A DNA stretch of 64,000 bases from Naegleria gruberi (lineage: Eukaryota). The notes below the pieces were generated by a model. It made no database searches. It worked only from the letters and a program-made list of their open reading frames with translations, and was not told the origin of the DNA. Below are positions 28,419 to 57,517 of the stretch, piece by piece. The stretch lies in NCBI GenBank assembly GCA_000004985.1, contig GG738870.1; one strand, given 5' to 3'. The position numbers were made by a program, and so were the translations under genes. How positions within the stretch are numbered: position 1 is the first letter of the stretch; every line of letters starts with the position of its first letter.

Positions 28419-29717
28419 TTATTCACTAACACCACTTTGTGTAACAATGTTAATATCCAAATATTGAGTATTCTTTGTCAATGTAGTGAAAAATCTGTTT
28501 TTTTGAATGGATTCCTTTTCGAATAGAATAAAATCATTGGTCAAGTGACACTTTTCCAATGTGAAATCTTCATCAAATCCAGTAACTGAGTAAAAGTATG
28601 AAGGAAAATGATAAATGTGGGCTTTCCAATAGAAACCTCCCTCTGAGGCAACCAAATTCAAGTGTTCACCCAAAGAGTTGTTTTCATTGGTACTAAGCAT
28701 GATGAGAGCATTCTTTCCACTTTCAAAAGAAAGCAAAAACAAATATCCATCACCTGATGGGTTTCCAATAATATTCTTAATGGTGACGGTTTCCTCTGGA
28801 AAAGATCTGTAAATTGCATTATCAATGGCGTCACTGACACAACCCCAACCATTACTGAGATAGTGCTTATTGTTTTCCTTAAATAATAATGTATGATTAT
28901 CAGCAAGTAGCTTTTCCTTATTGAGAAACAAATGGACACAATTATTATCTATAGAATGAGATCCAGTTGGTGCTACTCCTATGAATCCAACAAAATCTTC
29001 TCCAATAACTCCATCAAATATGTCTGGATATTTGAATAAATGATCTACAGGTTTTGGATTTGGGGTTGAATTCAATTTCTCCACATCAGCCACGTAGAAA
29101 TTTTGGGAAAGAGTTTTGATAAGGATTGTTTTCAAACCACATTTCACCCATTCTATTTGTCCCATTTTTTGACATGGTAGTGGTCTACAGTAGTATTTGA
29201 TATCAGCACGACGATTGTTGCTGTTAGATGACTGATTTGAATACAATCCAATGAAATATAATTGAGTAGATTCAGTTTGACAAATTACAAAATCATCTCC
29301 CAATTGAAAATCAATAATTCTCTCATTAATCATTTCATCTTCACTCAATTCCAAAACATGAACAATTGAATCACTTCTATTCAAATCAAATAATGTCAAG
29401 GTTTGACTTGGAAAGAATTCATCTCCATTCCATGTCAATACTCCAATTACATTCTTGAAAACTTTCAATTTTTCAAACAAGACATTGGTTCCGAATTGAC
29501 TTTTTGATCCATGATAATTTGCATTGTTATTGTTCAATCTTGGAGGAAATTGAAAGTGATTTTCCTTGAACATGAATGAAATATTTTCCAAACATGTTTT
29601 CTTCTTTCTTTTCATCAATTTCTTTTCTGAATTATTGGAAGAATTGGAAGAAACATTGTAAAGTTCTTTCAATTTTCTAAACATTTGATAATCACCAAAG
29701 TAAATAATTTCTGTCAT
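28419..29717 (-). CDS. Hypothetical protein; inverted paralog of 22847..24040 with an extra internal segment of about 55 aa
   Basis: The 432-aa ORF is about 97% identical at the nucleotide level over the first ~220 nt to the paralog, then diverges. Confidence 0.55.
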   Translation of the reverse strand: MTEIIYFGDYQMFRKLKELYNVSSNSSNNSEKKLMKRKKKTCLENISFMFKENHFQFPPRLNNNNANYHGSKSQFGTNVLFEKLKVFKNVIGVLTWNGDEFFPSQTLTLFDLNRSDSIVHVLELSEDEMINERIIDFQLGDDFVICQTESTQLYFIGLYSNQSSNSNNRRADIKYYCRPLPCQKMGQIEWVKCGLKTILIKTLSQNFYVADVEKLNSTPNPKPVDHLFKYPDIFDGVIGEDFVGFIGVAPTGSHSIDNNCVHLFLNKEKLLADNHTLLFKENNKHYLSNGWGCVSDAIDNAIYRSFPEETVTIKNIIGNPSGDGYLFLLSFESGKNALIMLSTNENNSLGEHLNLVASEGGFYWKAHIYHFPSYFYSVTGFDEDFTLEKCHLTNDFILFEKESIQKNRFFTTLTKNTQYLDINIVTQSGVSE

Positions 29718-29939
29718 TTCAAGTTTGATTTGATGATGATTGCAATTTCCAAGTGAATTGTTTTTCTTTTAAATTTAAACTATTAAAGGTGTTACACTTT
29801 TTCTTAAATATGTAAATAAGTGAGGTTACACACGGAATAGACACGAGTGTCGATTTGCTTCCGATAACTGCAACTTTGAATTACCTGTAAAACGTTGATC
29901 TGCATTGTGTCTGTCTACTCTAAGTAACCGAACAACATT

Positions 29940-31070
29940 TCAATAGAATTTTCTATGAACAATGCTTGGACCCTCTTCTTGATATTCAAAATCAGTAAGC
30001 CACAAATTCTGAGATGATGAAAAACTAGCCATCAGACTGCCACCAAGCCAAACTGATTCATCACCCAAAGGAGGCGCAACTTTGATCTTGTATTTGTATT
30101 CAGGAAATAGTGAAATCAATTCTTTGGAAATTCTCTTATCCATTCCAGAAAACATCGTTCCACCTCCTGAAAGAATAATATTTGCTCTGAAATCAGCTCT
30201 AATATCAAGATCACTTTTGGTAATTGTGTTACATATTGTTTCAATGATGTTCTCTGATTCAATGTTGAACAGTTTTGGTTGGAAGAATATTTCAGGACAC
30301 TGATATCTTTCACAGTCCAAATTGATGTGATTTCCATCTGGTAATTCAAATATCTTTTCAACAGACTCTTGAGATTCAGAGACTTTTCGATATTCTTCTT
30401 CATAATTGAGAGCTACATAACAAACATTTTCCTTAATATCCCTTGCAATTTCCTTATCTACAAGTCCCTTTTTCGTTACCATCTCCATCATGTAATTAGT
30501 CAACTCTCTACCACCAAAATCCATTCTCAAAGTAGCATGAGGTAATGCACTTCCCTCATACACAGGAACTGAATGAGTTACATCATCACCAGAGTCCAAA
30601 ACTAATCCAGTAGTTCTGCCAGATGCAAATACAGACAAGGCAGCTTGACTAGTCGAATACAAACCCTGTACTCTAAACTTTTCAAACATTATTTCAGTCA
30701 TTTGTTCTCTATCCTTCTTCCGATAGTTTTCTGGAACTCAATAGAACGCCTCTCTGTAAAGAAGGATCCACCTTCATCTCTTCAAATACAAAATTCCAAA
30801 TCATTTCCATATCATCCCAACTTGATATTTTCCTCCCTTCTATTGGCTTTCTCAATATTAAATCTTCTCTCTTTAATTTGGCTACCTCTCCAACAAAATA
30901 ATCAATTCCCAAACAATGTTCTTCTCGTTGATGATTTATTATGTTGTATTCCTAACTTGGCCAATAATTGAAGGAAAAACAAGTCTCGGACCATCCTCAC
31001 CAGAAAATCCAGCTCTTGTCCTATAACCTCCATTGTCTATTACTATTGCTTCGTTATCTCCTGCTATCAT
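29940..31070 (-). CDS. Actin-family protein (Arp1/centractin-like, 50-60% identical to actin). The reading frame is interrupted twice, so it is a possible pseudogene or carries assembly indels.
   Basis: Three collinear actin-homologous ORF pieces sit in three different frames. 31070..30939 encodes [15 protein letters not shown]…FPSIIGQ. About 30905..30760 encodes …GIDYFVGE…WDDMEMIW…VLL. 30790..29940 encodes [18 protein letters not shown]…IVHRKFY. No canonical GT-AG intron of suitable phase fits either junction. Confidence 0.55.
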
Positions 31071-33093: not shown

Positions 33094-34284
33094 TTACAAA
33101 AATTTTCTTTGAACAATACTTGCTCCATATTCTCTATATTCAGTACTTGTCAAACACAGGGATGGGAATGTCGAAAGTGAGGCCATCATCATTCCGCCTG
33201 TACAAGCTGCAGTTGATCCCAATGGCTCACTAACTTTACATTCATTACCAGAATTTAATTTCACAAGTTCCTTAGTTAATCTTTGAGAAATTCCCTTAAA
33301 TTGAGAGCTGCCACCAACAAGAACAATGTTATTAAACAAGGTATTTCTCACACCTTCATCACATGACATGATTGAGTTGTAGATGGCACTGTGAATACCA
33401 GTACTAGATTGAACAGTGGTAGGATCAAATTGTGGAGAATCACGTAAACATGAAGGGCTTCCACAATCCCAACCATTTTCAATAGCATTTGGATTGAAAA
33501 GAGCTTCTGGACATCTGATACACTCACCATCCAAACTAATCATACTGCCATCTGGTGTTTCATAATATTGTTCAGTTGGTGCTTTGATTTCAGATTCATA
33601 ATCTTGAGAAACGAAACAGATTCTCTCCTTAATATCTCTCAACATTTCCCAATCAACAGTAGAATAGATCAATCCCTTTTCTGCCATCAATCTGAGGAAA
33701 TACTGATCTAAATTGTGTCCACCAAAATCTAAAGACATAATTCCTTCCTTCAATACCTTTCCATTGATGATTGGAACAATTGAAGTAACTGTATGTCCAA
33801 TATCCAACACAATTCCACTTTCTCTTCCAGAAGCTCGTATAGAAAGGCAAGCTTGATTTTCCAAACACAATTCATCTACCTGGAGTTTTTCAATCAACAC
33901 TTCAACCATCTTTTCTCTATTTTCCAAAGTATTTAACGGAGAATCAGTCATTAATACGGATTTTCCAATTTCCTCATTAATTCTCTTCAAATCATCCAAA
34001 GAATATTTCCAAATCTTTTCAGCATCATCCCAATTACTAACAATTCCCTTACTAATAGGATAGGTTAGTTTCAACATTCCTCTCTTTGAAACAGCTTCAT
34101 CTCCAAAATATTCACTCTTTGATCCGATCATGACTCCTGCTAAGTGTGGTCTTCCAACTGTTGCGGGAAAGCACATCCTAAATTCTTCTTTTTCCTCTGA
34201 TGATGATAATGATGGAGTAAGACCAACCTTCATCCTAAAGGAACCACTATCAATCACTACTGTTTGTTTTTGGGCCATCGACAT
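33094..34284 (-). CDS. Divergent actin-related protein (ARP), single exon
   Basis: The 396-aa ORF has an actin fold signature throughout (VIDSGS, KRG(I/M)L, WDDAEKIW, LDIGHTVTS, GECIRCPEALF, IVLVGGSS). Confidence 0.75.
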   Translation of the reverse strand: MSMAQKQTVVIDSGSFRMKVGLTPSLSSSEEKEEFRMCFPATVGRPHLAGVMIGSKSEYFGDEAVSKRGMLKLTYPISKGIVSNWDDAEKIWKYSLDDLKRINEEIGKSVLMTDSPLNTLENREKMVEVLIEKLQVDELCLENQACLSIRASGRESGIVLDIGHTVTSIVPIINGKVLKEGIMSLDFGGHNLDQYFLRLMAEKGLIYSTVDWEMLRDIKERICFVSQDYESEIKAPTEQYYETPDGSMISLDGECIRCPEALFNPNAIENGWDCGSPSCLRDSPQFDPTTVQSSTGIHSAIYNSIMSCDEGVRNTLFNNIVLVGGSSQFKGISQRLTKELVKLNSGNECKVSEPLGSTAACTGGMMMASLSTFPSLCLTSTEYREYGASIVQRKFL

Positions 34285-36798: not shown

Positions 36799-39408
36799 TT
36801 GATTTGCTTGAGTAAATTGGAAACTTGGTTTCTAATATATTACTCAAAGGGGAGTTCTGATATTTCCGTAAAGGCCTTAATTATAACGTTTAAATTTGAA
36901 AAGTCAGATAAGAAAGGTATTGACTTACTTGATGTGACGTGTGGCATCTTTAGGAAAAATTCATTTTTAATATTTGACCCTTTGAAAAAAGCAAAACAAA
37001 TTATCCTGTCTGTTCGACAAGACAAAATGCCAACAATTTATTTCTTCATCTTTTCCTGTATTGTGGCTACCACACAGATGTTTAGTTTAGTTTCGGCTCT
37101 TTCGTTAGAAACAACAATGAAAATAGATGCTAGTCAATCATCATCTTTGAATTATCTATCATCCAATAACAGTTCATCCAATGATAACAGTATTATTAAT
37201 AATTTAACGCCACCCATTGGAGTAATTTTGAATAATTATAACACTTCGGATTTTATAAATCTTATTCTAAACATTACAACAAATATAACAGCCGCACAGG
37301 ACGAATTAGTCATGACTGAAGCAATGCGAACGAATCCAACAATCACAATCATTATCAGAGTGTTACTAACTTTATTTAATTTCTTTCTAATAATTTTGAT
37401 ACTTTCGTTTAGAAAGAAGGAACCAATCAAATCAAAATTTTATATTTCTATGGCGTTGGTATTGGTTAATATCATTGGACACATTCAGGGAATTATTGAA
37501 ATTCTTCCAGGTGCACCTTTATTCTTTCAAAGTTATTGGAATCAGTTTATTTCAGAAAAGTTGACGAAACAAGTTGATGCTCAAACATTTTACAGAAATA
37601 ATTTGAATTCGTATGGTGTTCCAACGTGGCTGGAAAGTTTTGCACTCTTTGAAAACATTTATTGTTTCATTGATGCCTATTTTATTTATGGATGTACTGT
37701 TATTGGATTGGCAATGTATTCGATTCAGATAATTAAACTAATGTTATTGTTGCTGTTGAAAGATAGAAAACAGGCAGTGGCTAGATCATTGGAAGAATTC
37801 AAAAAGAGACAAGTTGAAAAGTTTAAAGATCTCAAATTGAAAGAAGTTTCTTCAGAGACGAATCTTCAAGATCAGAAACCAATTAGTTTGATGAAACGAC
37901 TCTCAAGGAAGATTCTTTTTGTGGAAACAAACACGTCTTCTGAAAATTTGACGAAACAATCAGGTGAATCTTCACCAACCACTAGTGCTAGCTCAGTATC
38001 TAGTGCTCCTTCCACTTCCAATTTATTAGAATCTAATAATTCACAACAATCACAACAACAATTGCAACAAGAATCCTCAGAAGTATCAACTCCAAGATTA
38101 TCTAAAACTGGAGAGAATGATGATTCGTCCAGTTTAGCCTACGAAGATATTGCCCTCGATTTAACAACTGATGAAGATGCACTTTCAACTAGTTACGAAG
38201 AAATTTCAAAAAAGGGAAAATTTGTTAATTTCCTTAAAAAGATTTTAAAATATCAAATTATTGAGCTGAGCTACATTGGATTCTGGTTGACTGTGTGGTA
38301 TATTCTCGTTACAATTGTAATTATTATTCGTACAGAAGACACTTGGAGTAATTTTTTCATTTCTTGGGATTCGTATAGTGGATATTGTCGACATAATGAT
38401 AGAGTTCAGATTGGATATTATTCGATTGCCATCTTGTTCCTAATTTTTGTTTTCATTCCCATTACTTTAATATTCGATTTTGTAACTAGTTTAATCAAAT
38501 ATAGAAAAATTATTCGAATCAATAGAGAAAAGAATAGAAAGACAGAAAACTTTCTCATTTACTATTTTTATGAAACTGATCCTTTCGTTTACAGAACCGA
38601 AGTATTGGGAGTATTAATATTGGACTTTATAGTGGTCCTTACCTTTTTAATTGTGCTTCCAATTGGAGTTAACGCAAATTATTCTCAACAATTGGCGAGT
38701 TCAATACTCCTTTCCATTGGATTGAATTTTATTGGAGGTGTACTTTGTAATCCTGGAATTACAATTTCAAGAACTGTGTGGAATTATTTGGTTGAGTTCA
38801 AGACCAAAAGGGCAAATAAGAAAGATTCAAATGATTCTGATACTATATTTTCATTACAGCAATTGATTTCTTCACCAATTTGTTCTGAATCAATTGATTA
38901 TGTACTTTCCCACAAAACTGAAAGAGGTTTATTCTATCAATATCTGAAAGAAGAATATTCTGTGGAAAATCTACTATTCACAGAAGATCTTATCAAATTG
39001 AGAAAGATCCACAACGCACATATCAGAGCCAAAGTAATGAAAATTAAGGAAATGATCAAACTATACCTTTCCAATAGTGATTCAGTGTTTGAACTCAACG
39101 TTCCAACAAAAGTGATTCAACAAGAGTTGACTAATTTTAGGGAATTGATGGCTTTGTTGGATGAATTGAATTTAAAGGCTACTCAACTTCCTCGTGTATT
39201 TAAGGCTGATTCGAATACTAGATATTTTCCAAATATTGATTCGAATAAGGAAGAAAAGTTGAAACAATTAATTTCACAATTGGGTAGTGGTCGAATATTC
39301 ACAAATATTCAATCAGAGGTTTACAAAAACTTGATGGATTCATATTATCGATTCAATAACTCTAGAAAGTGGAAGGACTATATTAAGACTTCTTCTTCGT
39401 CAGCTTAA
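36799..39408 (+). CDS. Polytopic membrane protein with a C-terminal RGS domain (second member). It has a Ser-rich loop. The true start may be the internal Met at about 37026, which precedes a signal-like segment.
   Basis: The 869-aa ORF has multiple TM helices. The C-terminal RGS box is SIDYVLSHKTERGLFYQYLKEEYSVENLLFTEDL…NLMDSYYRF. Confidence 0.6.
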   Translation: MICLSKLETWFLIYYSKGSSDISVKALIITFKFEKSDKKGIDLLDVTCGIFRKNSFLIFDPLKKAKQIILSVRQDKMPTIYFFIFSCIVATTQMFSLVSALSLETTMKIDASQSSSLNYLSSNNSSSNDNSIINNLTPPIGVILNNYNTSDFINLILNITTNITAAQDELVMTEAMRTNPTITIIIRVLLTLFNFFLIILILSFRKKEPIKSKFYISMALVLVNIIGHIQGIIEILPGAPLFFQSYWNQFISEKLTKQVDAQTFYRNNLNSYGVPTWLESFALFENIYCFIDAYFIYGCTVIGLAMYSIQIIKLMLLLLLKDRKQAVARSLEEFKKRQVEKFKDLKLKEVSSETNLQDQKPISLMKRLSRKILFVETNTSSENLTKQSGESSPTTSASSVSSAPSTSNLLESNNSQQSQQQLQQESSEVSTPRLSKTGENDDSSSLAYEDIALDLTTDEDALSTSYEEISKKGKFVNFLKKILKYQIIELSYIGFWLTVWYILVTIVIIIRTEDTWSNFFISWDSYSGYCRHNDRVQIGYYSIAILFLIFVFIPITLIFDFVTSLIKYRKIIRINREKNRKTENFLIYYFYETDPFVYRTEVLGVLILDFIVVLTFLIVLPIGVNANYSQQLASSILLSIGLNFIGGVLCNPGITISRTVWNYLVEFKTKRANKKDSNDSDTIFSLQQLISSPICSESIDYVLSHKTERGLFYQYLKEEYSVENLLFTEDLIKLRKIHNAHIRAKVMKIKEMIKLYLSNSDSVFELNVPTKVIQQELTNFRELMALLDELNLKATQLPRVFKADSNTRYFPNIDSNKEEKLKQLISQLGSGRIFTNIQSEVYKNLMDSYYRFNNSRKWKDYIKTSSSSA

Positions 39409-39617
39409 CATCTTTGACAAATATTTTTTCAAAAATTATAATTAACGAGACGAAGAATAAGATGAATTTAATTTCACGGCACTTACATCCATACATCCAC
39501 ACGGAAGTGAAGTTACATTTTGAAGACCTGCAACAAAAAGGAGCTCCAAAACAAATTACAGCTCAAATAGAATAAAAACAAGTTGTTTTCAAATAAAAAG
39601 TGCAAAAACAAAAGGGC

Positions 39618-39706
39618 AGGGTGGTACGTGGATCGAACACGTGACCATCGGATGTCTGCTGCAAATAACTTTGCAATCCGGTGCTCTACCGCTGAGCTAA
39701 CCACCC
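39618..39706 (-). tRNA. tRNA-Cys (anticodon GCA) with a ~17-nt intron, 89 nt
   Basis: Acceptor GGGTGGT/ACCACCC, discriminator U73 (a Cys identity element), D-arm GCTC-AGCGGTA-GAGC. The anticodon stem CCGGA is followed by loop TTGCAA, then the intron inserted after position 37, then TCCGA. T-arm ACGTG-TTCGATC-CACGT. Confidence 0.75.
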
Positions 39707-39980
39707 ATTCAATATTCTTCAAAACTTAATCTAATACGACAATAGAAAACAGCAAATTTTTATAATACATACTTAAATGAAAGTAAGTAAGGAAAGTAAT
39801 ACTTACTCAGCTGAGTCTAAGTTTCAAATATAAGGAAAATTCAAAAAGTAATTATGTCTCATTGAATCTCACCGTTTATTTGTATCAACTCCCTGCCAAA
39901 ATCTGTGAGAAATTTGTAGTGTTACTCAACTTTCGTTCAATGAACTGTGAAGAAGAACCAAATCCAATAAATTTGAAAAA

Positions 39981-41168
39981 ATGAACAAAAGTCTACCACC
40001 ACCACTCTCTACCAAGAATTATCAACCTGTTCTCTGTGAACCCAGTCAAAATCCAACATTAATCATTGACAATGGTTCTTCCAATTCCAGAGTTGGTTTC
40101 TCATTTGAAGACATTCCTGGTTCTGTATTTCCTACAGTGTTTGGCAGAGTAGGAGGTAGACCGATTTATATAGGACCAGGTATCGCTAGGGAAGGATATG
40201 TTGGCCATGAAGCATTGTCCAAAAGGGGAATTGCTTCATTGAAATATCCTATTAAGAGAGGAATTGTAACTGATTGGCAATTTATGGAAAAGATATGGAG
40301 CCATAATCTTATTTTGGAAATGAACATTGCTATGGAGGAGCATTGTGTTTTATTGACAGAAACTCCATTGAATCCAACAGCAAATCGTGAAAAGATGTGC
40401 CAATTAATGTTCGAAAGGTTTCGTGTACCAGCAATGTGTGTTGCTGTTCAAGCTGTGTTGTCTTTGTTCGCTTCAGGTAGAAGTAGTGGAATAGTGTTAG
40501 ATTCAGGAGGTGGAGTTTCAAATGTTGTTCCAGTTTATGAAGGTCTTGCCTTGCCACATGCCATTTCTAGACAAGAATTGGCAGGTAGCGATGTGACTGA
40601 TCATTTGATGACATTGTTGATGGATCGTGGTTATAGTTTTATAAGTGCTGAACGAGATATTGTGAATGATATTAAGGAAAAGATGTGTTTTGTAGCTTTA
40701 GATTGTGATTCTGAAAAGAAATTATTCGAAAGTTCGATTCCAACAGCAGATTCCTCATATGAGTTGCCTGATGGAAATGTTATCAATCTAGGTTGCGAAA
40801 GATTCATTTGTCCAGAACTGTTATTCCAACCAAACATGGTGGAAATGGAAGAAATAGGTCTTCATGAATCCATACACAACTCTATCCGAAAGTGTGACCT
40901 CGATATTCGAAAGCAATTGTATTCCAACATTCTTCTCGCAGGAGGGTCTACTCAAATTAAAGGATTTTCTGAGAGATTGTTTAAGGAGTTGAAAGAAATT
41001 ACTTCTTCCTCTGTGGAATTCAATATTGTCACCCCACCAGATAGAAATAATTCTTCTTGGATTGGTGGAAGAATTCTTTCGTCCATGTCAACTTTTGGAT
41101 CAATGTGCATGTCCAAAGCCGAATATGAAGAGATTGGACCTGGAATAGTTCATAAAAAATGTTTCTAA
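39981..41168 (+). CDS. Divergent actin-related protein (ARP), single exon
   Basis: The 395-aa ORF shows actin signatures (IIDNGSS, KRGI…LKYPI, TDWQFMEKIW, MFERFRVPAM, IVLDSGGGVS, LAGGSTQ, IVHKKCF). Confidence 0.75.
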   Translation: MNKSLPPPLSTKNYQPVLCEPSQNPTLIIDNGSSNSRVGFSFEDIPGSVFPTVFGRVGGRPIYIGPGIAREGYVGHEALSKRGIASLKYPIKRGIVTDWQFMEKIWSHNLILEMNIAMEEHCVLLTETPLNPTANREKMCQLMFERFRVPAMCVAVQAVLSLFASGRSSGIVLDSGGGVSNVVPVYEGLALPHAISRQELAGSDVTDHLMTLLMDRGYSFISAERDIVNDIKEKMCFVALDCDSEKKLFESSIPTADSSYELPDGNVINLGCERFICPELLFQPNMVEMEEIGLHESIHNSIRKCDLDIRKQLYSNILLAGGSTQIKGFSERLFKELKEITSSSVEFNIVTPPDRNNSSWIGGRILSSMSTFGSMCMSKAEYEEIGPGIVHKKCF

Positions 41169-41307
41169 TAAATACCTGAGTGTTTTATTATTGGGAAAGT
41201 ATCAATTCAATTAATCTTAATTGAAATGATTCAAATCGTTCACATTTTAAAAACTTAAAGTTTCACTTTGAAATAAATTTATGATGATGTACCAACTAGA
41301 ATTTTTC

Positions 41308-42417
41308 CTAATAATATTGTTCCAATATTTTTCTAAGTTCTTGTTTTGCAAATATTTTTATAAATTTAATTGAGGACAAAAACCAAATTTGCAAAGGATT
41401 GTTATTTAAAGAGTTAATAAGAAATCTTAGCAACCAGTGTGTCAAAATCAAATGTTGAATCTCTATTCTTGGCACAACTAACATATAAGCAATCACCATC
41501 TGCAAATCCAAACCTATCCCCAAATAAAGAGGCAAATAAACTTTTCTCTTTGGGAACATACTCTGCATCACCATATCCAAACAGGTAATTTTTAGTGTCC
41601 GTGTTAAATGCCATGGATTTATAATAGAAATCAAAATCTCCATCTGTAACGTCATACCAAAACAATAGGGGTGTCTTTGGAATATCCAACCATGTGATGG
41701 AATCTTCAATTCTGAATTCGTTGGCAATATTCTATTCAATTCTTCACAATTCAATTGTAAAATCAGGGAATGATCTGATAATTGACCACACCATTCTTTT
41801 GGAATGTCTGCACTTCCTCCAAGCTTTGACATTCCTTTAGTTATTTCCTTAGTTTCATCCCTATCCAATCCAATACTCCACTTTGTTTTTTCCAATATAT
41901 TAATCCAAGTTCTATGATGAATTCTAAAAGAATCTTCCAAATCCCTCTCAGAATGGAATGAATAATATGTTGATCTATTTTCAGGATTTTCCCATACCTT
42001 GTTCAATTTTTCCAATTCATCGACCGTTCGTCTAATACCTCTAGAAGAGCAATTAATAAATTTAATTAAATAACTATCGAAACCAGTGAGTAATGGAAAG
42101 TACCCTGACAAACAAAAAACTTTCCACTTTTCACTCAATTGAATAAATAATCGAAACAAGCATACAGTATTCTTTCTAAATTTTTTACATTCAGCCTTCA
42201 ACATGATCTGTAATCCCTTCAATGATTTATCTCTTTTAATCATTACTTCCATTCGATTTGAATAAATTTCATCAGAATATGTTTGCATAATTTCATTCCA
42301 TTCTTGAGAAATTAATTTACAATTTTCCAAATCTTTTACATTGGCAAGCATGGATAGAAAGTAACAAATAAATTCCTGATCCGATGAGTGAAAGAGTGGC
42401 GCTAGATCTTGAGACAT
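41308..42417 (-). CDS. F-box-like protein. The reading frame changes near 41700..41760, so it is a possible pseudogene or has an indel.
   Basis: An N-terminal F-box-like helix is present (LFHSSDQEFICYFLSMLANVKDLENCKLISQEWN). The 3' third of the listed 369-aa ORF reads like out-of-frame sequence. A better C-terminus (…DIPKTPLLFWYDVTDGDFDFYYKSMAFNT…LVAKISY*) is in another frame ending at 41414. No canonical intron reconciles the two frames. Confidence 0.45.
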   Translation of the reverse strand: MSQDLAPLFHSSDQEFICYFLSMLANVKDLENCKLISQEWNEIMQTYSDEIYSNRMEVMIKRDKSLKGLQIMLKAECKKFRKNTVCLFRLFIQLSEKWKVFCLSGYFPLLTGFDSYLIKFINCSSRGIRRTVDELEKLNKVWENPENRSTYYSFHSERDLEDSFRIHHRTWINILEKTKWSIGLDRDETKEITKGMSKLGGSADIPKEWCGQLSDHSLILQLNCEELNRILPTNSELKIPSHGWIFQRHPYCFGMTLQMEILISIINPWHLTRTLKITCLDMVMQSMFPKRKVYLPLYLGIGLDLQMVIAYMLVVPRIEIQHLILTHWLLRFLINSLNNNPLQIWFLSSIKFIKIFAKQELRKILEQYY

Positions 42418-42533
42418 TTTTTTTAATGTTCAATTTTGCATTTGCACCCTTACATCCAAAGTTGATTGAAATTCGAATATGCATTAGAAAGAAATAGTTT
42501 GATACACACAATGTGTATTTCTCCTTAGAATTT

Positions 42534-43997
42534 CTAATTGGTTGGTATTTCTGTAGTTTTTCCAAACAAGGCCAATAAAATACATCCTGGCACTAAAAGC
42601 ACCAAAACACTTATAAAGAATTGAAGAATTGCCTTCCATCCTCTTAATTCTCTGAAAAATACTAATCCACATATTCCTGTAATGACCATTGCTGTTTCAG
42701 TAAGTGGCATACCAATGGTCAATCCAAGTGGAGAAACTGAAACATAATAGGCAAAGAAATTTCCAGTTTGCCACAAGAATGCTGTTAATGCAGGAAATAT
42801 TGAAAGTTTGAGATGGAATGGAACTCTCTTTTTAAATCTAATCAAGTAATAAACGTAGTAAACAATTAAAATTGCTGTTGTAATGACAAACGATCCAATT
42901 CCAAAGGCGACCATATAGACAAGTCCTGTATCTTCATCTAAACGAGATGGTACGAACATACTTCCACCAGTTATTCCACATAATACCGAGGCTACTAATC
43001 CAATGAAATATCGTTTAGAATTTTTCAAAATCTTGATAAACTTTTGAGATTTGGTTTCATAAACTCCAATTGTTGATTCAATCTCTGATAATTCAGAATA
43101 TAGTGTTGGATCATTCACAGAAGGATAAATAGGAACATCACTACTAATATTCTCCTGTTGATTTGTGGAATTTTCTTGTTGATAAAGTGGTGTTGTTTCA
43201 GTATTATTTTCCTGTCCAGACTCTTCAACACTTGCATTGATTGAAGTTTCAGATTGTTTTTCAGCAACAGGTTCTGGATTATTCCACTTACTGCAAGTGG
43301 CAGTTCCAAAAATACCAATAATCATAATAACCAATCCAAAAACAGTCAAATAAATATTTCCAATTTTAGATTGAAACAATGTAACACCCCAAATGAAATT
43401 GGTAATAATCACACAACCGGCCCAAGTTGATTGAGCAACAGCAGCTCCAAGATACTCCACAGCCACAATGGAAAACAATGAAGAAGGAACCCAAATTCCA
43501 CTTCCTGCCACAGCCCACCAACTCCATTTAAACTCATTCCAAGCTAGAACAATTAAACTCATCAATCCAACCACAAGAGAAAAGTAAAATTGAAATACAA
43601 TCGGATCAAATTCAACATTTCTAACCCATTTAACTTTCATCGGCAAGACAAAAGTTCCCCATGTCAAAATACTGAAATGTGTCATCAATAATGATAATGA
43701 TGATACCTACCAAACAGAAACTCCAACCCATCCAAACCATTCCGGAACCTTATCTCCACCATTCGTTCCATTAGTATTATTATTGGAATTATTTTGCAAA
43801 AGTGTGTAGGATGAAATTTCATTAATTATTGATGGGATGGGATAGAGAGAATTTAGCATCGGAGGAAATGCACTCATCACTGATGATGACGCTTGTTGCG
43901 TTATTGGTGGTGCAACCATAATGATGTGAGACAAAAGTTGTCGTGTATTTTTTTTGTTAAAATTCCCAAGAATCTGGGAGGATTCTGCTTTATTCAA
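42534..43997 (-). CDS. 10-TM transporter-like membrane protein (DMT-superfamily/TMEM144-like guess), probably with a short 5' exon
   Basis: The 384-aa core ORF is 42534..43688. The upstream ORF 43707..43997 is in the same frame, separated by one TAG. A candidate 39-nt intron (GTAGGT…TTTCAG, 43689..43727) would remove it. Confidence 0.5.
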
Positions 43998-44214
43998 AGG
44001 ATTTGGTGAATTCTGCTTGATATTCTCGAATAATCATATATTTAATCCAATTATTGAATGGAATGTTACAGTCAATGTTGCTATTCTACCTAGCTATAAC
44101 TAATACACATGTGGTTCAACTCTCATTTGAAGTTGGTGCATATTAATATCGGCTTTAAATTGTAAAGCCTTAAGTACTTTAAAAAAAATAACAAACTACT
44201 TAATAAAAATACTA

Positions 44215-46126
44215 ATGGCCTCATCACCAACGAGAATTTTTGAAGCCTACGAGATGGTAAGCTATATTGGTGAAATTGAGAACCAACGCACACAATCAAT
44301 ACAAGAACTTGTACCTCTAAAATCAAAAGATCATAACATTTACCTTATGAACGACAGATATGAAATTGATTGTTTCCCTATCGATTATTCTATTCATATT
44401 AAAACGCATCCATTCAAATTTTCCCAACTAAAGAACTCCTCTGAAGCAGATATTTGGAAATTGATCAAGAGGATTGCTCTTCAACAAAGTATATTTAAAG
44501 GTAGATTTATTGGTTTGAAAGGAAAAGACGGCAAGGTTAAAACTGTATCCGAATTTAAGGCTTTTATAGATCAAGTTGATATTCAGACAGATTTAAAGTT
44601 CGTTATTGTTAAAGAGAGGTTTGAGAATGTATTTTCTACCATTGAATCAAGGCTAAACCAATTAAATTCCTTAGAAAGGAACACTTGTTCTATTATCACC
44701 CTGGCAAAGGACGCTTCCTTTAACTCAAGTGCATTGGAAGGGAATATTCACAGCAACAAAGGACGAATTTGAGGCATCCGAAAGTGAGGATGAAGATTCA
44801 CTCACTCCTGATACTAAAGAAATACGAGTACTGAGAAAGATGCATGAAAGATTCCAAACCGATATAATTAATGGAAAGGTTTATACACTCGATGAAGAGC
44901 TACTGTTGACAGAACACAAAGAAATGGCCATTGGTCTTGGAGAGGGTGCAGGAAGATTCAGAAGTGTAAATGTTTATGTTAAAGGATCTTCCCACAAGTT
45001 TGCACCTTATGATACAATAAGAAGCAAGTTGGCATCTGTTTTAATGATTTTCTACTCCAAAATCACCAGCGCCAATTCGTTGGAAGAACGAATTAAGGCT
45101 GCAATTTACATCCATTATGAAATTGTTAACATTCACCCATTCAGAGATTACAACGGAAGAATGGCAAGATATATCATGAACTTAGTTTTATTTCAGTATT
45201 GTAGAATTCCTCCGGTATCAATATTGCCAGGAATTAAGGATGAATACTTTGCTTCTGTTCGCGAAGTTGATAAGAATAATGATTATAGATTTATTACTAC
45301 CATCATTACAGAATCAATTATTAGGTCTATCGAAAAAGCATTTTATTATACTCACATACAGGATGGAATGGGACTATTGTTGAATAGATTTACATTGGAT
45401 CAGCTTGCAGAATATTGTAAATCTAACAACATTACCACTGACGAAAGTTCCAAGTCTAAAATGATAAGAGATATTTTGAGACTCTCTAATAGAATTGGAG
45501 AATTTGCTTTTGTGTTGGAGTTGGAAAAACAAGATTTACAATCAATAGTTCTGGACAATAATCTATCCACTTTTTCTCAATTGCAAACATGTTTAATAGA
45601 GATTTTATTTTCTAATCCAAACACCAACCTGAAACAATTTCTCAATTTATTCAACACTGAAGGTTTAGACAGATTCTTGGAATTATTAAGAATGAAAGAT
45701 GAGTCCTCTAAGGAAGGAAAAATTACAGCTATCATGGAAGAAGTATTAATATTAGGTATGAGAATCGGATTTGGTAATATGAAGGAAGAGAACATCTCTT
45801 CTTTATGCAATGAACTGAAGATCTCTTCATTTGGTTCCAAACTTGAAAACATTCATTCAATGTTTGGTGTTATTTATCCTCATTACTCTAGATTTAAACA
45901 TTTATTATTTAAAGAATACATTTGGGATATTAAGAAAGGTATTTCTTTGGAACAATTATATCAATTTCATTACTATGACTTACTCGTTTATGCAAAAAAA
46001 CAACAATTGAATTTAAAACATAAATCCAAGAAGAGCATTTGTAAGAATATTTTAACCAGTGGTCATATTAAGAGACTTAATGAGAATGACGATTTGTTGC
46101 AAAATCTCAAGAAAAAGAAGTTATAA
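44215..46126 (+). CDS. Fic (filamentation induced by cAMP) domain protein, class-II layout (N-terminal inhibitory helix then Fic core), interrupted by a +1 frame change at about 44745
   Basis: The canonical Fic motif HPFRDYNGRMAR lies at 45134..45169 in the 465-aa ORF. The inhibitory-helix motif SSALEGN (44725..44745) is encoded at the end of the upstream 185-aa ORF in a different frame, about 130 aa upstream, as in FICD. No intron-sized GT-AG interval fits. Confidence 0.65.
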
Positions 46127-46255
46127 CCAAATATATTAGGTTTCATTTCACTTATGAATTTGACTCTTTCCAAATTTGCAAACCAAAATATTTAACATAA
46201 AGCAAATTGTCATTATAAATTGTCGTATTAGATTTAGTTTTGAAGAATATTGAAT

Positions 46256-46344
46256 GGGTGGTTAGCTCAGCGGTAGAGCACCGGATTGCAAAGTTATTTG
46301 CAGCAGACATCCGATGGTCACGTGTTCGATCCACGTACCACCCT
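46256..46344 (+). tRNA. tRNA-Cys (GCA) with intron, second copy; identical to 39618..39706 but inverted
   Basis: The copy is identical across the mature tRNA and the intron. About 40 nt of 5' flank are also nearly identical. Confidence 0.75.
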
Positions 46345-46739
46345 ACCTTTTGACTGTGCAATTTACTTAAAGGGTAAGATTTTTTTAACATGTTTACAGT
46401 AAAAACATAACGAAATTGATAACTTTACTAATGAGACAAACTTCTTCTCCATTGGACTGTTCATGAATTCATGAAAGTTAAATGTCAACATTGTTGATAA
46501 GTTTGAAATGTAACTTCTAAAGTGGAATGAAAAATAATATTTTGGTAATATTGCGAAAACAGAAGTTTCCCTTATCGTCCATTCATTACTCTAACTTTCG
46601 TCTCATTTCCAATAAGGAGCAGTAAATTTCGAAGAGTCTTTTAATTGCATTGTAATGATGTCAATTAAACATTTAAATATTTGATCACTGATTCTATTCT
46701 TAATTATTCACATTTAAAAAACTACAAACACAATTAACA

Positions 46740-48701: not shown

Positions 48702-50207
48702 TTACTGATTTGAAAATTTAAATCTATTAATTAAATCAGCCAAGTCATTCACACAATGAGTTTCAATCTCCTCAAATAAATCATTTCCAAAATAATATTC
48801 CTCAGATTCAATTTTTGAAATGATTAATCGTTTCCTCAATTCAACATTTTCAATATTCAATTCTGCAGGAGCACCAATTGTTAGAAATTGTTCCAAAATA
48901 AACTCTGCTGCCATTTTCTTATTGTGATAATTCTCCTTCTTGTATTGTTGAATAGATTTCCAGCAGAGAAGTGATTCTGGACAGTAACATCGTCTGGCAA
49001 AGTCCAACAATTTCTGATAATAATTCTCATCTTCCAAATTGCTTGCTACTTGCGAATCTTTGTTATTGGATAGATTACCTGTTGAATCTAGACGTGCTGA
49101 CCTATTCTTCTTGAAACGGTCCAAATAAATCTCCCAAGCAATTGGTCTCAATACTGTAATGATAATTTCCAAACTTGCAAAAGCGAATAGGAATAAACTA
49201 TATGGAATAATATAATCAACCAATGTAATATATCCATTAATATTACCCAAAATTACAAATAGCGCCAATCCAATTACTTGCGTAATGATAATTACAATAG
49301 ATTCAGTCTTGATATTCCAGGCATCTCTATCTGCCATTAGTAATAGAATTATTGAACCAATTTCAAAAATGAGATAGATCAGCGTAAGGCAAGACACCAA
49401 TATTAGCCCATTAATTGTTAAAACACATCCAAATCTGAATTCAAACATTCCAGGGTAGACAAATAATTGAGAAGCTCCATTCTCAAACTTTTTCCCAGTC
49501 TTGTCAATTCCAAATTCAATACCAGCCATCAAGAGCCATAACAGTGTATTGAATAGAAAGCAAGTAATGTACACAACCGCCACAAATTTGTAACTGGTCA
49601 AGAATTGTAATGTTTTGATTTTAAACTTCATGGAAAAATTAGTTTTCATCAAGGAATAATCCATCTTGTTGGCAACAGCTGCATTACTTGGTATTTCATC
49701 AGGTATTTCCATATTATAAGTATCCACAACACTCTGATCAGATAAACTCTTAGAAGATTCCACCTTTTCCACTGGCACACTTTCCAAATTGTTATCATTC
49801 ACTTCATTTTCCAGAGCTATCTCTTGCTTCACTTCCATCTCAATATTGGAAGATTTACTTTCCAATACTTTCTGTTGTAATTGATTCTCAAATAGTTTCA
49901 TCTTGACCTTATTCAATTTATAACTCGAAAATACACGAATGCATCGACACGTCGAGGGAAGTGTCATTATTGGACCCAGACAGAAGCACCACGAGTAGAT
50001 TGCACATGGAAATAACTTTCTTCCAATTAAAGTCCTAATACAGAATATTGTGATGAAGAAAAAACTTGAAAGTAGAGTTAGAATGGAATGCGAAAGGTTT
50101 CGTGCTCGGATACTTTTCGAATTTTGTTTAAATATTAGTCCAATAATCGAGAGAATGATGAGTGAGAAGTAGTAGAGAAGAAAGAGAGAAGTAATTCCTA
50201 CAGACAC
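48702..50207 (-). CDS. Polytopic membrane protein with a C-terminal RGS domain (third member)
   Basis: The 501-aa ORF has about 7 TM helices. It ends in an RGS box (YYQKLLDFARRCYCPESLLCWKSIQQYK…FGNDLFEEI…LADLINRF). Confidence 0.6.
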   Translation of the reverse strand: MSVGITSLFLLYYFSLIILSIIGLIFKQNSKSIRARNLSHSILTLLSSFFFITIFCIRTLIGRKLFPCAIYSWCFCLGPIMTLPSTCRCIRVFSSYKLNKVKMKLFENQLQQKVLESKSSNIEMEVKQEIALENEVNDNNLESVPVEKVESSKSLSDQSVVDTYNMEIPDEIPSNAAVANKMDYSLMKTNFSMKFKIKTLQFLTSYKFVAVVYITCFLFNTLLWLLMAGIEFGIDKTGKKFENGASQLFVYPGMFEFRFGCVLTINGLILVSCLTLIYLIFEIGSIILLLMADRDAWNIKTESIVIIITQVIGLALFVILGNINGYITLVDYIIPYSLFLFAFASLEIIITVLRPIAWEIYLDRFKKNRSARLDSTGNLSNNKDSQVASNLEDENYYQKLLDFARRCYCPESLLCWKSIQQYKKENYHNKKMAAEFILEQFLTIGAPAELNIENVELRKRLIISKIESEEYYFGNDLFEEIETHCVNDLADLINRFKFSNQ

Positions 50208-52544: not shown

Positions 52545-55500
52545 TTACTTTTTGATACCAATGAGGGCACTGTTGAGTTTGCTACTGTCAATGTTACCAC
52601 CTCCATCGAGATCATCACCTCCAGCTCCTCCTCTTGCTCCACCTCTACGGAGAGCAACTGATTTGGCAGCTGTGGCAAGTTTTAATTGTTGCATCTTTTC
52701 ATCCATAGCTCCTCTTCCTTCACCTCCACCAACTGTGGATTTGTTCTTAAGTACATCAAGTTTTTGCTTGGCTGAATTGATCTTAAGTTGTTGTTTGGCA
52801 GCTTCCTTCTTAACCTTTTCTTCTTCGGCCTTCTTTTTCTTTTCTTCTGCCTTTTTGGCTTGTTCATTCTTTTCATTGGCCTGTTTGAATTGTTGCATGA
52901 ATAGATCGATGAGAGCCAAGAATTTATCAGGTTCCTTTTGTAAATCTTCTGGTCTTTCATCAAATGACTTGGCAAGAGAATCAATTTCAGTTTTCATAAT
53001 CTTGAATTTAGCTTCAATACCTTCCAATTCATCCTTAACTTTTTGTTCAAAGCTTTCCATTGTTGAAACGAACTTGTCTTCTTCAGAGGTATTTTCCCTA
53101 GCTTTTGTAATTTGTTGTGAAAGTTGAGTGAGACACTTCTTCAATTCGTTGATATCATCTTCAACTGATCCAACCAAAACACGTGTAGCTGGTTGAATAT
53201 GAGTTAATTGAGTATCAAAGTCCATCAAGTGTTTCTTCTTTTCTCCAATGAAATCGACAATGTACTGGAGTAAACTAGTTTTACCATCACCTGATTTGGT
53301 GTCAGCAAGTTTTTGCAATGATTTGAGCTTGAAACCAAATGATATTTTCTTCTTTTGTTGACCGTTCAAAAAGTTACCAAATGTAAGAATGACAGCAAGA
53401 ATTTCCATGAATTTTTCACTTTCTCTAGCTTCCTTACATCCCAAAATCATATTTTCAATATCTGGCTTAATTTTTGAAATCATTTCATTGAAACGGAACT
53501 TGAATGACCAAGCATCCAATCTTCCAATCAAGTTAGGTATACCGTTCATGACACGGAAGAATTTATCTGGTTCAGCCAATTCATCCATCGGTCCATCATA
53601 TCCCATCACAGTATCAACTTCTTCTTGTTCTGGAGCAATTTGCTTAATAGTTCCAATATTATCAGCAGTCACAACTGCTTCATCCATAGCAATAATAGCT
53701 TTTCTGAGCATATCATATGATACACCTCTGATACTACCTAATTGGAGTGATACAGAGTAACTACGCTTAGCATCAAGCAATGATTTAACTTCCTTCTTCT
53801 TTTCCTTTGGTTCTGCTTTTTCACCTTCTTTTTCTTTCTTTGCTGTAGAGAATACAGTTGACAATTCATCAAGATTCAGCTTGGAAATAATAGAATTGGT
53901 TTCTTGAGCAATATTCTTCTTAATGAAAATTGTTTTTGCGACATTGTTCTTGTTGATAGCATCAAAGTGAACTTGACGAGTTGTTTCAGTTGGTGCCTTA
54001 GTTGGCAATGTTGGTAAACCATCACCAACACCAACACCTCTTCCACGGCCCATCATTGGCATACCAGGTACACCAGGTACTCCTGGAATACCAGGAACAC
54101 TTGGCACTCCTGGAATACCCATACCAGGTGGCATAGGAACACCTCCCATACCAGGTGGCATTGGTACTCCACCACCCATTCCAGGTGGCATTGGAATACC
54201 ACTACCAGGAGGCATTGGAATACCACCAGGTGGAGGAGGAATACCACCCATTCCTGGAGGCATTGGAATACCACCCATTCCAGGTGGCATTGGAATACCA
54301 CTACCAGGAGGAGGAGGAATACCAGTTCCAATAGGAGGAGGAGGAATACCCATTCCAGGAGGTGTTGGAATACCTACACCAATTGGTGGTGGAGGAATAC
54401 CCATTCCAGGAGGTGTTGGTATATCACCACCACCCAAAATTGGAGGTGGAGGAACACCAACTCCAGGAGGAAGAGGAATATTACTAGTTGTAGGTGCAAG
54501 TGAAGGATCTTCTTGTGTTGGTGGATTCTTCTTTAATTGATCCCTTTCTGTTTCCAATTCTTTCTCCTTCTTTTTCAAAGTTTCAATCTTGGTATTACAT
54601 TCAGAAATTAATTTCTTAACATTGTCCTCCTCTTTGGTCCAGTGTTTTTTCTTATCATCGAGTACCTTCTTTGCATGTTGGACTTGTTCATTGTTTGCCT
54701 TCTTTGAAAAGACTTCATTCTTAAGTTTTTCAATTTCTTGGTGGAGTTGAGTGAGTTCAGCCTTAATGTGGGAGTGCTTTTCTTGTTGAGTAGCCTTTTC
54801 CTTCTCAGTTTCAGAAAGCTCACTTCTAGTTTGAGCTGTTTGTTCTTCAATTTCTTTCAAGAACTTTTCCTTTTCTTCAGAAAGGGAATTCTTCTTCTTT
54901 TCAATTTCTTCCAAAGTTTTGGAAATTTCAACAATTTTAGTCTCGTACTCTTGAAGAATAGATTCGCGTTCTGATTGCAAGTTATTAAGTTGATATTGTT
55001 GGGTTTTGACTCTGTCAGCAAGTTGTTTTTCCTTCTCTGTTTTGATTTTCATGTCTTCTTCTGCTCTCTTTGGTGCCAATCCAGCATCAACCAAAAGTTT
55101 AATCTTGCTCCAATTTTGAGCTGATTGTTGTTCGGTAAGAGACTTGTCAATAGCCACCGAGTTGTAAATGATCAATTCAGTTAACAATTCATAGAGCATA
55201 TTTTTCAAAGGTTCATCATCGGAAACTTCATTCAATTTTTGTTTAAGAAGCTTGACAACATTTACAGAATCTGATAAATCATTTTCCAAAAATTCTTTTT
55301 GACAAACTTCCAGTTCACCAGCTAAAACTTCCATTTGACTGTTCAAATCAGTAATAAATTCTTGAGCTTCCTCATCTTCCATAGATTGAACAGATTTTTC
55401 CAAGCTTTGATTCTTGAGCTCTGTAATTACTTCCAAACATTTCAAATTTCTAAATTCCTTCTTGAACAAGGATTTGGTACCTTCATCAGGAGATTGATCC

Positions 55501-56658
55501 AATAATGTATTGAACAAGAACAATGCATAGTATGCATAGTCGAGATTAGATTTTGTCATTCTTTGAATAATATCATAAAATCTGGTCTTTTCTCTCTTGA
55601 CAAGTCTATAGTGACTCAATGCACTGACAACCAAACTAAAACCATGACTTGCCCAACTGGCCATGACAATCAAAATTTGTAAAATATCACAAGCTGCTTC
55701 AATATTTGGAGTATCTAAAATGAGAACCAAGTTTTTCATGGCATCTTTTTCTGCCAAAAATTCTTCAATACCCACATTGGTATTCAACAAGGCCTTCAAG
55801 GCAGCAATACAGAGGGATTGTTTTTCCAAATCCTCTACAGTAGCAACCATATTTGTGGATGTGAGTGTTCCACTTTCGTGCTCAGAGACAGCAGTTGATG
55901 TACCGCCTTGCTCAGAGTTGGATTGGTGATGTTGATGGAAATTTGGTGTATAATCTTCAGAGTCAGAATATTCTCCTTGATCGATTTCCATATTATCGGA
56001 GGCAGGTGTTACATCTTCCTCAGATTGTTGTTTTCTAGAAAGAACATTGGTCATATTCAAACAATGGATCAAATGTTTGATACCTCCTTGCATAATAAAT
56101 TGGTTGACCCATCGAATTGGCTTGTCAACCAAAAGTTCAGCAATACGAGCCAAACGTGCAGAATCATAATTGTGTTTTTCCCATTGAGAAAGGAGTACGA
56201 AAGGAGTATCCTCATCAGCAGTTTGATCATTATCGTTTTTAAAGTAATACAAACGTCTATTGATTATATTGTATTAACATGATTGATTATATTGTAATGA
56301 AACATTTTAAACATAACATCCAAAGAGTTACATACCTGACTTTTTCCTGTACAGTTTTAGTTGCCAATTGTTTTCTTCTGATACTATCTGGTACTCCCAT
56401 TTCCACTAACATTTCATTGAAATTTCCATTGACATCATCGTCATTCCATTGTAATTGTTGTTGGTAGGCAAGAGCATTAAAAGGTTCTCTATTAAAACCT
56501 CCATTATTACTACCACCAATGTTTGATGATGAGTGGGATGGGGAATTATTTGGTGAGTGATGAAGCGCCGAAGATGATGAAGAAGCAGCCTGAATCGTCA
56601 GTTGCTGCGAGTGAGAGAGCGCGGAAGTACTCTTTGATGTATTCTTTTTTGGCGCCAT
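52545..56658 (-). CDS. Diaphanous-related formin (GBD/FH3, coiled coil, poly-Pro FH1, FH2). It has two exons, 56658..56336 and 56256..52545.
   Basis: The intron is 56257..56335 (GTATGT…ATCAATAG, 79 nt) and joins …TVQEKV|R|LYYFKND… in frame. FH1 has more than 12 repeats of PPGMGIPPPPIG. The FH2 region follows and a basic C-terminal tail ends the protein. Confidence 0.8.
54040..54480 (-). repeat. Tandem imperfect about 30-36-nt repeats encoding the formin FH1 polyproline tract
   Basis: The units ccaggtggcattggaatacc[a/c]cc… are repeated. The translation is (M)GIPPPPG/IG repeated. Confidence 0.7.
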
Positions 56659-56985: not shown

Positions 56986-57059
56986 GCAGCGATAGATCAG
57001 TTGGTTAGATCGTAAGCCTAACACGCTTAAGGTCGCGGGTTCAAGCCCCGCTCGCTGTA
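56986..57059 (+). tRNA. tRNA-Val (anticodon AAC, presumably I34), 74 nt
   Basis: Acceptor GCAGCGA/TCGCTGT (G1-U72), D-arm GATC-AGTTGGTTA-GATC, anticodon loop CTAACAC, T-arm GCGGG-TTCAAGC-CCCGC, discriminator A. Confidence 0.8.
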
Positions 57060-57428: not shown

Positions 57429-57517
57429 GGCGGCTTAGCACAGTGGCAGTGCATCAGTCTTGTAGACAGAAATGCTGAGATAACTGAGGGTCGAGGGTTC
57501 AATTCCCTCAGTCGCCT
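57429..57517 (+). tRNA. Intron-containing tRNA, most likely tRNA-Thr (UGU), 89 nt with a ~17-nt intron after position 37
   Basis: Acceptor GGCGGCT/AGTCGCC, D-arm GCAC-AGTGGCA-GTGC. The anticodon stem is TCAGT/ACTGA with loop CTTGTA|intron|A. T-arm GAGGG-TTCAATT-CCCTC. A T4 run follows. The anticodon assignment depends on intron placement; Tyr(GUA) was considered and is less consistent. Confidence 0.6.

Follow-up and report, generated by a model that had tools for sequence, protein, structure and literature searches.

Two identical intron-containing tRNA-Cys genes of Naegleria gruberi and their shared 37-nt upstream block

The serine tRNA genes of S. pombe reportedly undergo intergenic conversion, which leads to concerted evolution of the dispersed copies, and the Dictyostelium discoideum genome is said to contain pairs of identical tRNA genes separated by a few kb. 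In S. pombe and plants a TATA box is located at -30 upstream of type 2 Pol III genes, and yeast tRNA genes display a composite upstream motif. The TSEN endonuclease excises canonical nuclear pre-tRNA introns, and a tRNA ligase joins the exons. For Naegleria, a literature search revealed no description of nuclear tRNA introns or of tRNA upstream elements.

The pair of tRNA-Cys(GCA) genes described here resembles the S. pombe serine and D. discoideum families in having identical, inverted copies within a few kb of each other, with unrelated distal flanks, next to a protein-gene pair with conversion-like patches; it differs in that the identical tract takes in 37 nt of 5' flank and in that the mechanism is one that we infer. 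Like the type 2 Pol III upstream elements of S. pombe, plants and yeast, the shared block is A/T-rich and overlaps the expected start-site/TFIIIB region, but it lacks a clear TATA consensus and is absent at the other six Pol III genes of the window. The intron of the Cys genes shares with those of yeast tRNA-Phe, tRNA-Tyr and tRNA-Ile(UAU) the 37/38 site, the short length, partial pairing with the anticodon and a single-stranded 3' splice site, although the isotype here is Cys(GCA) and splicing is predicted from sequence. The most likely explanation, to which we assign a probability of roughly 0.62, is that the two genes are functional copies of a nuclear Pol III type 2 gene and that their common flank reflects descent, a tract of ~135-150 bp having recently undergone either duplication or homogenisation through ectopic gene conversion.

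Layout and identity of the gene pair

The window is a 64-kb stretch of N. gruberi nuclear DNA, as indicated by its formin ORF, which matches an N. gruberi protein at 100% identity, and comprises two tRNA-Cys(GCA) genes of 89 nt each, identical in sequence including a 17-nt intron (AGTTATTTGCAGCAGAC). The genes are divergent (head-to-head), with their upstream sides facing the ~6.4-6.5-kb interval that separates the copies. Strain L001, a ~97% identical relative known from a metagenome contig, covers copy 1 in context. The features are as follows.

39604..39617, (-): 3' trailer and oligo-T terminator of copy 1, GCCCTTTTGTTTTT
39618..39706, (-): tRNA-Cys(GCA) copy 1, from Rfam tRNA and ARAGORN with intron detection; exon 1 39706-39671, intron 39670-39654 (17 nt), exon 2 39653-39618
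39707..39743, (-): 5' block of copy 1, -37..-1, A at -21; identical in strain L001
39744..39804, (-): 61-nt segment distal to the copy-1 block, in the window and missing from L001
46219..46255, (+): 5' block of copy 2, -37..-1, T at -21
46256..46344, (+): tRNA-Cys(GCA) copy 2, from Rfam tRNA and ARAGORN with intron detection; exon 1 46256-46291, intron 46292-46308 (17 nt), exon 2 46309-46344
46345..46352, (+): 3' trailer and oligo-T terminator of copy 2, ACCTTTTG

Direct comparison of the two loci agrees with the original prediction, which had proposed identical copies, intron included, at these positions. The Rfam tRNA model (RF00005) returned 54.7 bits, where the gathering score is 29, and assigned the surplus bases to the anticodon loop, and ARAGORN with intron detection on reported both loci as Cys(gca) i(37,17); under its default settings neither gene was called. 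The covariance-model cloverleaf, the anticodon and the discriminator base (U73, the last base of exon 2) all fit isotype Cys, and the cloverleaf contains a single mismatch, C27-A43, which is also present in strain L001. The internal A box, TAGCTCAGCGG, matches 10 of the 11 positions of the consensus TRGCNNAGTGG, and the B box, GTTCGATCC, agrees at all 9 specified positions with GTTCGANTC(C), the 9-nt core of the consensus GGTTCGANTCC. The TTTT terminator starts 3-4 nt past the 3' end of the gene. Each copy would thus constitute a complete Pol III unit, comprising ~37 nt of 5' flank, a gene with A and B boxes, and a 3-4-nt trailer followed by TTTT. Leader, start site and the proximal portion of the DNA occupied by TFIIIB would all fall within the flank. 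From these sequence features, both copies are probably transcribed by Pol III and spliced.

The 17-nt intron

The intron is inserted at 37/38, one nucleotide 3' of the anticodon (ARAGORN, tgcaa-intron-atccg). The minimum-free-energy (MFE) fold of copy 2 combines the cloverleaf with an anticodon-intron helix (-31.3 kcal/mol, z = -3.05), and the predicted pre-tRNA fold retains the mature domain while exposing the 3' splice site in a single-stranded stretch. Rfam, ARAGORN and the MFE fold agree that the extra 17 nt form an anticodon-loop intron, as first proposed, which rules out their assignment to the variable arm. A strict bulge-helix-bulge of archaeal type, with two 3-nt bulges and a 4-bp helix, was rejected since the MFE fold displays a 6-nt 3' bulge and locates the 5' splice site within the helix. 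The modelled structure fits a eukaryotic ruler-type substrate, from which a protein tRNA-splicing endonuclease and a ligase would cut out the 17-nt intron to yield a 72-nt tRNA with U73.

Animals, plants and S. cerevisiae seldom have an intron in tRNA-Cys(GCA), and for these organisms the earlier claim that a Cys intron is uncommon stands. Across eukaryotes the same claim was overstated: in fungi around half of the tRNA genes, belonging to many isotypes, bear introns (PMC12168002), and the tRNA-Thr(UGU) gene of the same window also contains a 17-nt intron when ARAGORN is run with intron detection. Canonical introns are thereby described for both tRNA-Cys(GCA) and tRNA-Thr(UGU) of N. gruberi.

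Extent of the shared tract and comparison with strain L001

The block located directly 5' of both Cys genes, ATTGTCGTATTAGATT(A/T)AGTTTTGAAGAATATTGAAT, extends over 37 nt, of which 36 are identical, the sole mismatch being at -21, and contains TATTAGATTA at -30..-21. When the block was used as a 36-nt pattern (first base omitted) with up to 3 mismatches allowed, only two sites were found in the window, where shuffles expect 0. The block is absent from the flanks of the His, Lys, Val, Thr and 5S genes, and was found at both Cys copies and at copy 1 of strain L001. A repeat search of the window identified one inverted repeat, 39611-39758/46204-46351, of 148 nt and 93% identity. Similarity between the copies stops abruptly at -37, and when the 400-nt stretches distal to the block, or those beyond the terminator, are aligned, they do not outscore shuffled sequence. 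The flank alignments thus support a real block with a sharp distal edge and divergence beyond it, as anticipated, while the duplicated unit, originally put at ~155 nt, measures ~135 nt (-37 to ~+98), or 148 nt with its weaker edges.

Searches for the unit elsewhere revealed no further copies. A 30-mer from the 5' exon gave 0 matches in JGI metagenomes and IMG/VR, a 23-mer across the block/gene junction, joining 20 nt of block to the first 3 nt of the gene, was likewise without a match in IMG/VR, and short ORFs overlapping the unit, used as queries, retrieved no additional tRNA-Cys. No tRNA-Cys was present in the ~290 kb of N. fowleri, N. lovaniensis and Willaertia DNA sampled; N. lovaniensis has not preserved the gene order around formin, and the neighbouring Fic-domain gene retrieved no homologue besides the N. 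gruberi protein itself.

In strain L001, copy 1 and its 37-nt block are unchanged in relation to the window, and the copy-1 trailer is that of copy 2 in the window; the trailer changes in copy 1 of the window are thus derived and recent. Since the two trailers coincide, the ancestral copies differed at 1 of ~135 positions. Today the window copies present 3 events in ~63 non-tRNA positions (block, intron and trailer), compared with ~16 events that separate the window from L001 over ~400 nt of orthologous intergenic DNA. Divergence between the copies at non-tRNA sites is therefore similar to intergenic divergence between strains, and no selection on the block is needed. The block itself shows 0 changes in 37 nt between the window and L001, where ~1.5 are expected, a difference that is not significant (P ~0.2). 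The 61-nt segment missing from L001 is unique in the window and was rejected as a repeat or mobile remnant; it marks a rearrangement breakpoint at ~-38.

Origin of the shared block

It is possible, if doubtful, that the 37-nt block is a Cys-specific upstream Pol III element, either TATA-like or involved in TFIIIB positioning and start-site selection, kept by purifying selection since an older duplication whose neutral flanks have decayed. The block occupies the position where TFIIIB and the start site lie in other eukaryotes, as established in yeast, S. pombe and plants, and similarity is lost abruptly at its distal edge. It is 100% conserved in L001, in the vicinity of intergenic DNA with substitutions and indels, and the 61-nt indel halts at its edge, as expected if deletions into the block were disfavoured. 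In addition, the 5' flank of the 5S rRNA gene ends in GAATTGAAT and that of tRNA-Cys in GAATATTGAAT; a 9-mer common to both flanks, AATATTGAA, was discarded as a motif because its 12 occurrences in the window make it too common to be meaningful. Gene conversion requires homology at the tract ends, and thus the block would already have been shared beforehand, which leaves room for selection. These points are countered by the non-significant conservation between strains and the neutral level of divergence between the copies. Moreover, the tRNA-His pair of the window has identical genes with only 2 nt in common upstream, none of the other Pol III genes of the window bears the block, and the orthologous tRNA-Arg(TCT) genes of N. 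fowleri and N. lovaniensis are preceded by unrelated sequence. The original proposal of a promoter or positioning element is therefore not established, as recent copying alone accounts for the identity of the block, and a promoter role is possible but unproven. A broader version, in which tRNA-Cys genes at all Cys loci of N. gruberi depend on an isotype-specific upstream element of ~37 nt, seems unlikely; it would imply a hybrid internal/external Pol III promoter in this heterolobosean, with ~-38 perhaps a preferred breakpoint for rearrangement or insertion beside TFIIIB-protected DNA. Were the block conserved at every Cys locus, it would offer a starting point for studying the upstream promoter elements of Pol III genes in Heterolobosea, although the present data do not require this.

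Derivation of the unit from a generic dispersed repeat or mobile element, whether a tRNA-derived, SINE-like sequence or a cassette captured at sites of break repair, would explain a short, sharp-ended unit placed in inverted orientation in unrelated contexts, one 3' of the Fic-domain gene and the other 5' of an actin-like gene, and would suit a genome with an unusually high tRNA gene count (924; PMC2888827). This origin is improbable: the unit ends without target-site duplications and has no tail past the terminator, a Pol III retro-copy would not include 37 nt of upstream DNA, IMG/VR and JGI metagenomes contain no matches, and the six metagenome matches of a 20-mer from the block are chance hits with no tRNA. 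The many copies, 3' tail and target-site duplications that characterise tRNA-derived SINEs are lacking, with only two copies within 64 kb, a count that covers the window only. An assembly artefact representing a single tRNA-Cys locus twice would account for the identical gene sequences, but is highly improbable, as the flanks of the two copies are entirely different and unique, the copies differ at -21 and in the trailer, and copy 1 was recovered in context in an independent metagenome assembly.

Recent copying of a short tract, by duplication or by conversion between the inverted copies, would leave the surroundings unrelated because only the short tract was copied or homogenised. The Cys pair displays the near-identity within a sharply bounded tract and the unrelated surroundings characteristic of concerted evolution by ectopic gene conversion; a short de novo duplication would fit the pattern as well. 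A larger, ancient inverted segmental duplication was rejected: no close paralogy links the RGS genes on either side of the pair, and the flanks retain no residual similarity. Neither the A/T difference at -21 nor the recent trailer changes have been erased by homogenisation, which means that conversion is infrequent. Both the copying mechanism and any contribution of the block to promoter function are what we infer from the pattern of identity. The pair is an ordinary feature that matters little; it suggests that the large tRNA complement of N. gruberi includes very young short-tract duplicates or convertants carrying their immediate 5' flank. In the same window, two inverted protein-coding paralogues ~6 kb apart, 22847-24040 (+) and 28419-29717 (-), present patches of 95-98% identity in genes whose products are otherwise 35-40% identical, a pattern that fits what conversion, acting locally, would produce.

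Two identical intron-containing tRNA-Cys genes

The Pol III gene set of the window consists of seven tRNA genes and one dispersed 5S rRNA gene. It includes two tRNA-Cys(GCA) genes, divergently oriented with 6.4 kb in between.

Pol III genes of the window
4549-4620 (+): tRNA-His(GUG)
16214-16286 (+): tRNA-Lys(CUU), start of a Pol III cluster (16214-18695)
17520-17638 (-): 5S rRNA (105 bits), in the cluster
18624-18695 (-): tRNA-His(GUG), end of the cluster
39618-39706 (-): tRNA-Cys(GCA), copy 1 (Rfam tRNA; ARAGORN with intron detection)
46256-46344 (+): tRNA-Cys(GCA), copy 2 (Rfam tRNA; ARAGORN with intron detection)
56986-57059 (+): tRNA-Val(AAC), intronless, with tRNA-Thr(UGU) ~370 nt downstream
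57428-57518 (+): tRNA-Thr(UGU), 17-nt canonical intron

As first noted, the two tRNA-Cys copies are identical (89 of 89 nt), including the 17-nt intron. Each scores 54.7 bits against the Rfam tRNA model (gathering score 29). A default ARAGORN run calls neither gene; with intron detection both are tRNA-Cys(gca), with intron AGTTATTTGCAGCAGAC between tgcaa and atccg, at the canonical 37/38 site. The predicted MFE fold is a cloverleaf (-31.3 kcal/mol, z = -3.05) in which UUUGCA of the intron pairs with the anticodon region and the last six intron bases are single-stranded. Since the Rfam placement, the ARAGORN call and the fold all assign the additional 17 nt to the anticodon loop, these do not form part of the variable arm. 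The predicted spliced tRNA comprises 72 nt with U73; its A and B boxes can be recognised, and a TTTT run lies 3-4 nt past the end of the gene.

The intron is of the textbook canonical type, and the standard pathway of protein endonuclease and ligase would excise it; unlike archaeal introns, it does not form a strict bulge-helix-bulge motif in the predicted fold. The most conserved tRNA introns are those of Tyr, Ile(UAU) and Leu(CAA), and Cys is not known to be among the intron-carrying isotypes of animals, plants or baker's yeast. A Cys intron is therefore uncommon, as first described, relative to model animals and plants, but not beyond them, because about half of the tRNA genes predicted in fungi have introns (PMC12168002), tRNA-Cys introns are known from the Guillardia nucleomorph, at non-canonical sites (PMC4090602), and tRNA-Thr(UGU) of the window carries one.

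Extent of the shared unit and its conservation in a related strain

Directly 5' of the genes, the copies share a 37-nt block (39707-39743 for copy 1, 46219-46255 for copy 2) with a single mismatch at -21. With its first base dropped and up to three mismatches allowed, the resulting 36-nt pattern occurs nowhere else in the window, where shuffles expect 0 matches, and the block is absent from every other Pol III gene in the window. In gapped local alignments, both the 400 nt on the distal side of the block and the 400 nt past the terminators score within the range of shuffled sequences. A common upstream block followed by diverging flanks is thus confirmed, with 36 identical positions and nothing beyond. 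The repeated unit, spanning -37 to about +98, measures ~135 nt (148 nt at 93% when extended by repeat search) rather than the ~155 nt first given. Nothing indicates an older inverted duplication of larger extent, because the distal flanks align like shuffles and the outer flanking RGS-domain genes are not close paralogues. Unique flanks and an independent assembly exclude an assembly artefact.

The copy-1 region aligns with L001, a metagenome contig of a related strain (ENA ERZ929261) that encodes the neighbouring actin-like protein at 98% identity. L001 has the tRNA-Cys gene and the 37-nt block without any change, and its trailer, ACCTTTTG, is that of window copy 2, whereas window copy 1 has GCCCTTTTG. 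The two trailer changes of copy 1 are therefore recent, and it follows that the ancestral copies would have differed only at -21 in ~135 nt. In the same alignment (L001 1650-2360, window 39300-40000), a 61-nt indel lies at the edge of the block and one of ~25 nt immediately precedes the actin-like ATG; the stretch between the RGS stop codon and tRNA-Cys contains several small indels.

Origin of the shared upstream block

Judged from sequence comparison, the pair most likely represents two functional tRNA-Cys(GCA) genes with an intron, whose common block was inherited from a recent short-tract duplication or gene conversion. Each copy is a putative complete Pol III unit in which the gene is preceded by its proximal 5' flank and followed by a terminator. 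As the DNA on either side is unrelated, copying would have been limited to a short tract, either moved or homogenised. The copies differ today by 3 events over ~63 nt outside the mature tRNA (block, intron, trailer), and orthologous intergenic DNA of the window and L001 by ~16 events in ~400 nt. Since these rates are similar, copying at about the time when the strains separated would suffice to explain the block without selection. Dispersed tRNA genes of identical sequence that evolve in concert are familiar from organisms such as S. pombe and Dictyostelium, and the pair is an ordinary feature of this known kind. The window also contains a pair of convergent paralogous protein genes, ~6 kb from each other.

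22847-24040 (+): first paralogue
28419-29717 (-): second paralogue (gene b), with ~170 nt extra between the patches

Their DNA is 95-98% identical in patches (22842-23161 and 29232-29722; the first ~75 codons plus one internal 29-codon block), while protein identity elsewhere is 35-40%. Ectopic gene conversion typically leaves such patchiness, and the pattern resembles a partial conversion; conversion between inverted repeats at such a distance therefore plausibly operates in this region.

The original interpretation holds for the two genes, the 37/38 intron and the common block, but only possibly for the block as a promoter element, since recent copying suffices to explain its identity. Nonetheless, a selected, Cys-specific upstream promoter element, the main alternative, keeps perhaps a minor share of the probability. 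Conversion requires tract ends that are already homologous, and the 61-nt indel between the strains, whose segment is unique in the window, stops within 2 nt of the block's distal edge, which points to constraint. Against selection, the divergence between copies approximates that between strains, and the zero changes in the 37-nt block, where ~1.5 are expected, are not significant by themselves. Moreover, in the identical, inverted (convergent) tRNA-His genes, 14 kb apart, identity extends past the gene by just 2 nt on the 5' side and 7 nt (ACCTTTT) on the 3' side, unlike in the Cys pair; identical tRNA genes here therefore need no common 5' flank. In tRNA-Arg(UCU) orthologues of N. fowleri (L007) and N. 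lovaniensis (L021) with the same neighbour genes, the body is conserved and the 5' flank unalignable. Though one case of a different isotype, this speaks against a strong and general constraint on the sequences that precede tRNA genes in Naegleria. The last bases of the 5S 5' flank, GAATTGAAT, are similar to GAATATTGAAT preceding tRNA-Cys, but this likeness is only a lead because the window contains the common 9-mer AATATTGAA 12 times. The unit is unlikely to be a SINE-like or generic repeat, as it has neither target-site duplications nor a tail and includes upstream DNA not expected of a Pol III retro-copy.

The ~290 kb of N. fowleri, N. lovaniensis and Willaertia DNA surveyed contained no tRNA-Cys, and no further N. 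gruberi tRNA-Cys copies were recovered from JGI metagenomes or IMG/VR.

Gene content of the window

The window (G+C ~33%) is densely coding, with mostly uninterrupted ORFs for eukaryotic proteins (actin-like, formin, RGS-domain, Fic-domain, ankyrin, WD40 and others). The formin encoded at 52545-56252(-) matches a Naegleria gruberi FH2 protein at 100% identity (66% for N. lovaniensis, 57% for Willaertia magna), which identifies the window as N. gruberi nuclear DNA. The tDNA count given for N. gruberi is 924 (PMC2888827). At seven tRNA genes plus 5S per 64 kb, tRNA density is far higher than in the ~290 kb of N. fowleri, N. lovaniensis and Willaertia (L002, L004-L012, L019-L022), which hold six tRNA genes, four of them one repeated Arg gene. 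The N. fowleri locus L010 carries three tRNA-Arg(UCU) genes (15614-18494) at ~1.3-1.5-kb spacing with nearly identical immediate flanks, whereas the otherwise similar L007 has one (15616-15689); in the N. lovaniensis orthologue (L021 15478-15551) several acceptor-stem positions differ and the 5' flank is unrelated.

Three divergent actin-like genes lie inside 11 kb (29940-30701(-), 33094-34284(-) and 39981-41168(+)). The 396-aa and 395-aa proteins share 37% identity, the latter matches most conventional actins at 53-60% identity (one at 46%), and the 253-aa ORF matches the actin profile over its C-terminal half only. A C-terminal RGS domain is present in three long proteins (4890-7832(+), 36799-39408(+), 48702-50207(-)), which are very divergent among themselves and, judged by eye, look hydrophobic and possibly multi-pass membrane; two of the three genes directly adjoin a tRNA gene (His copy 1 and Cys copy 1). 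Within the formin, imperfect 24/27-nt periodic repeats (54112-54501(-)) encode the proline-rich FH1 region.
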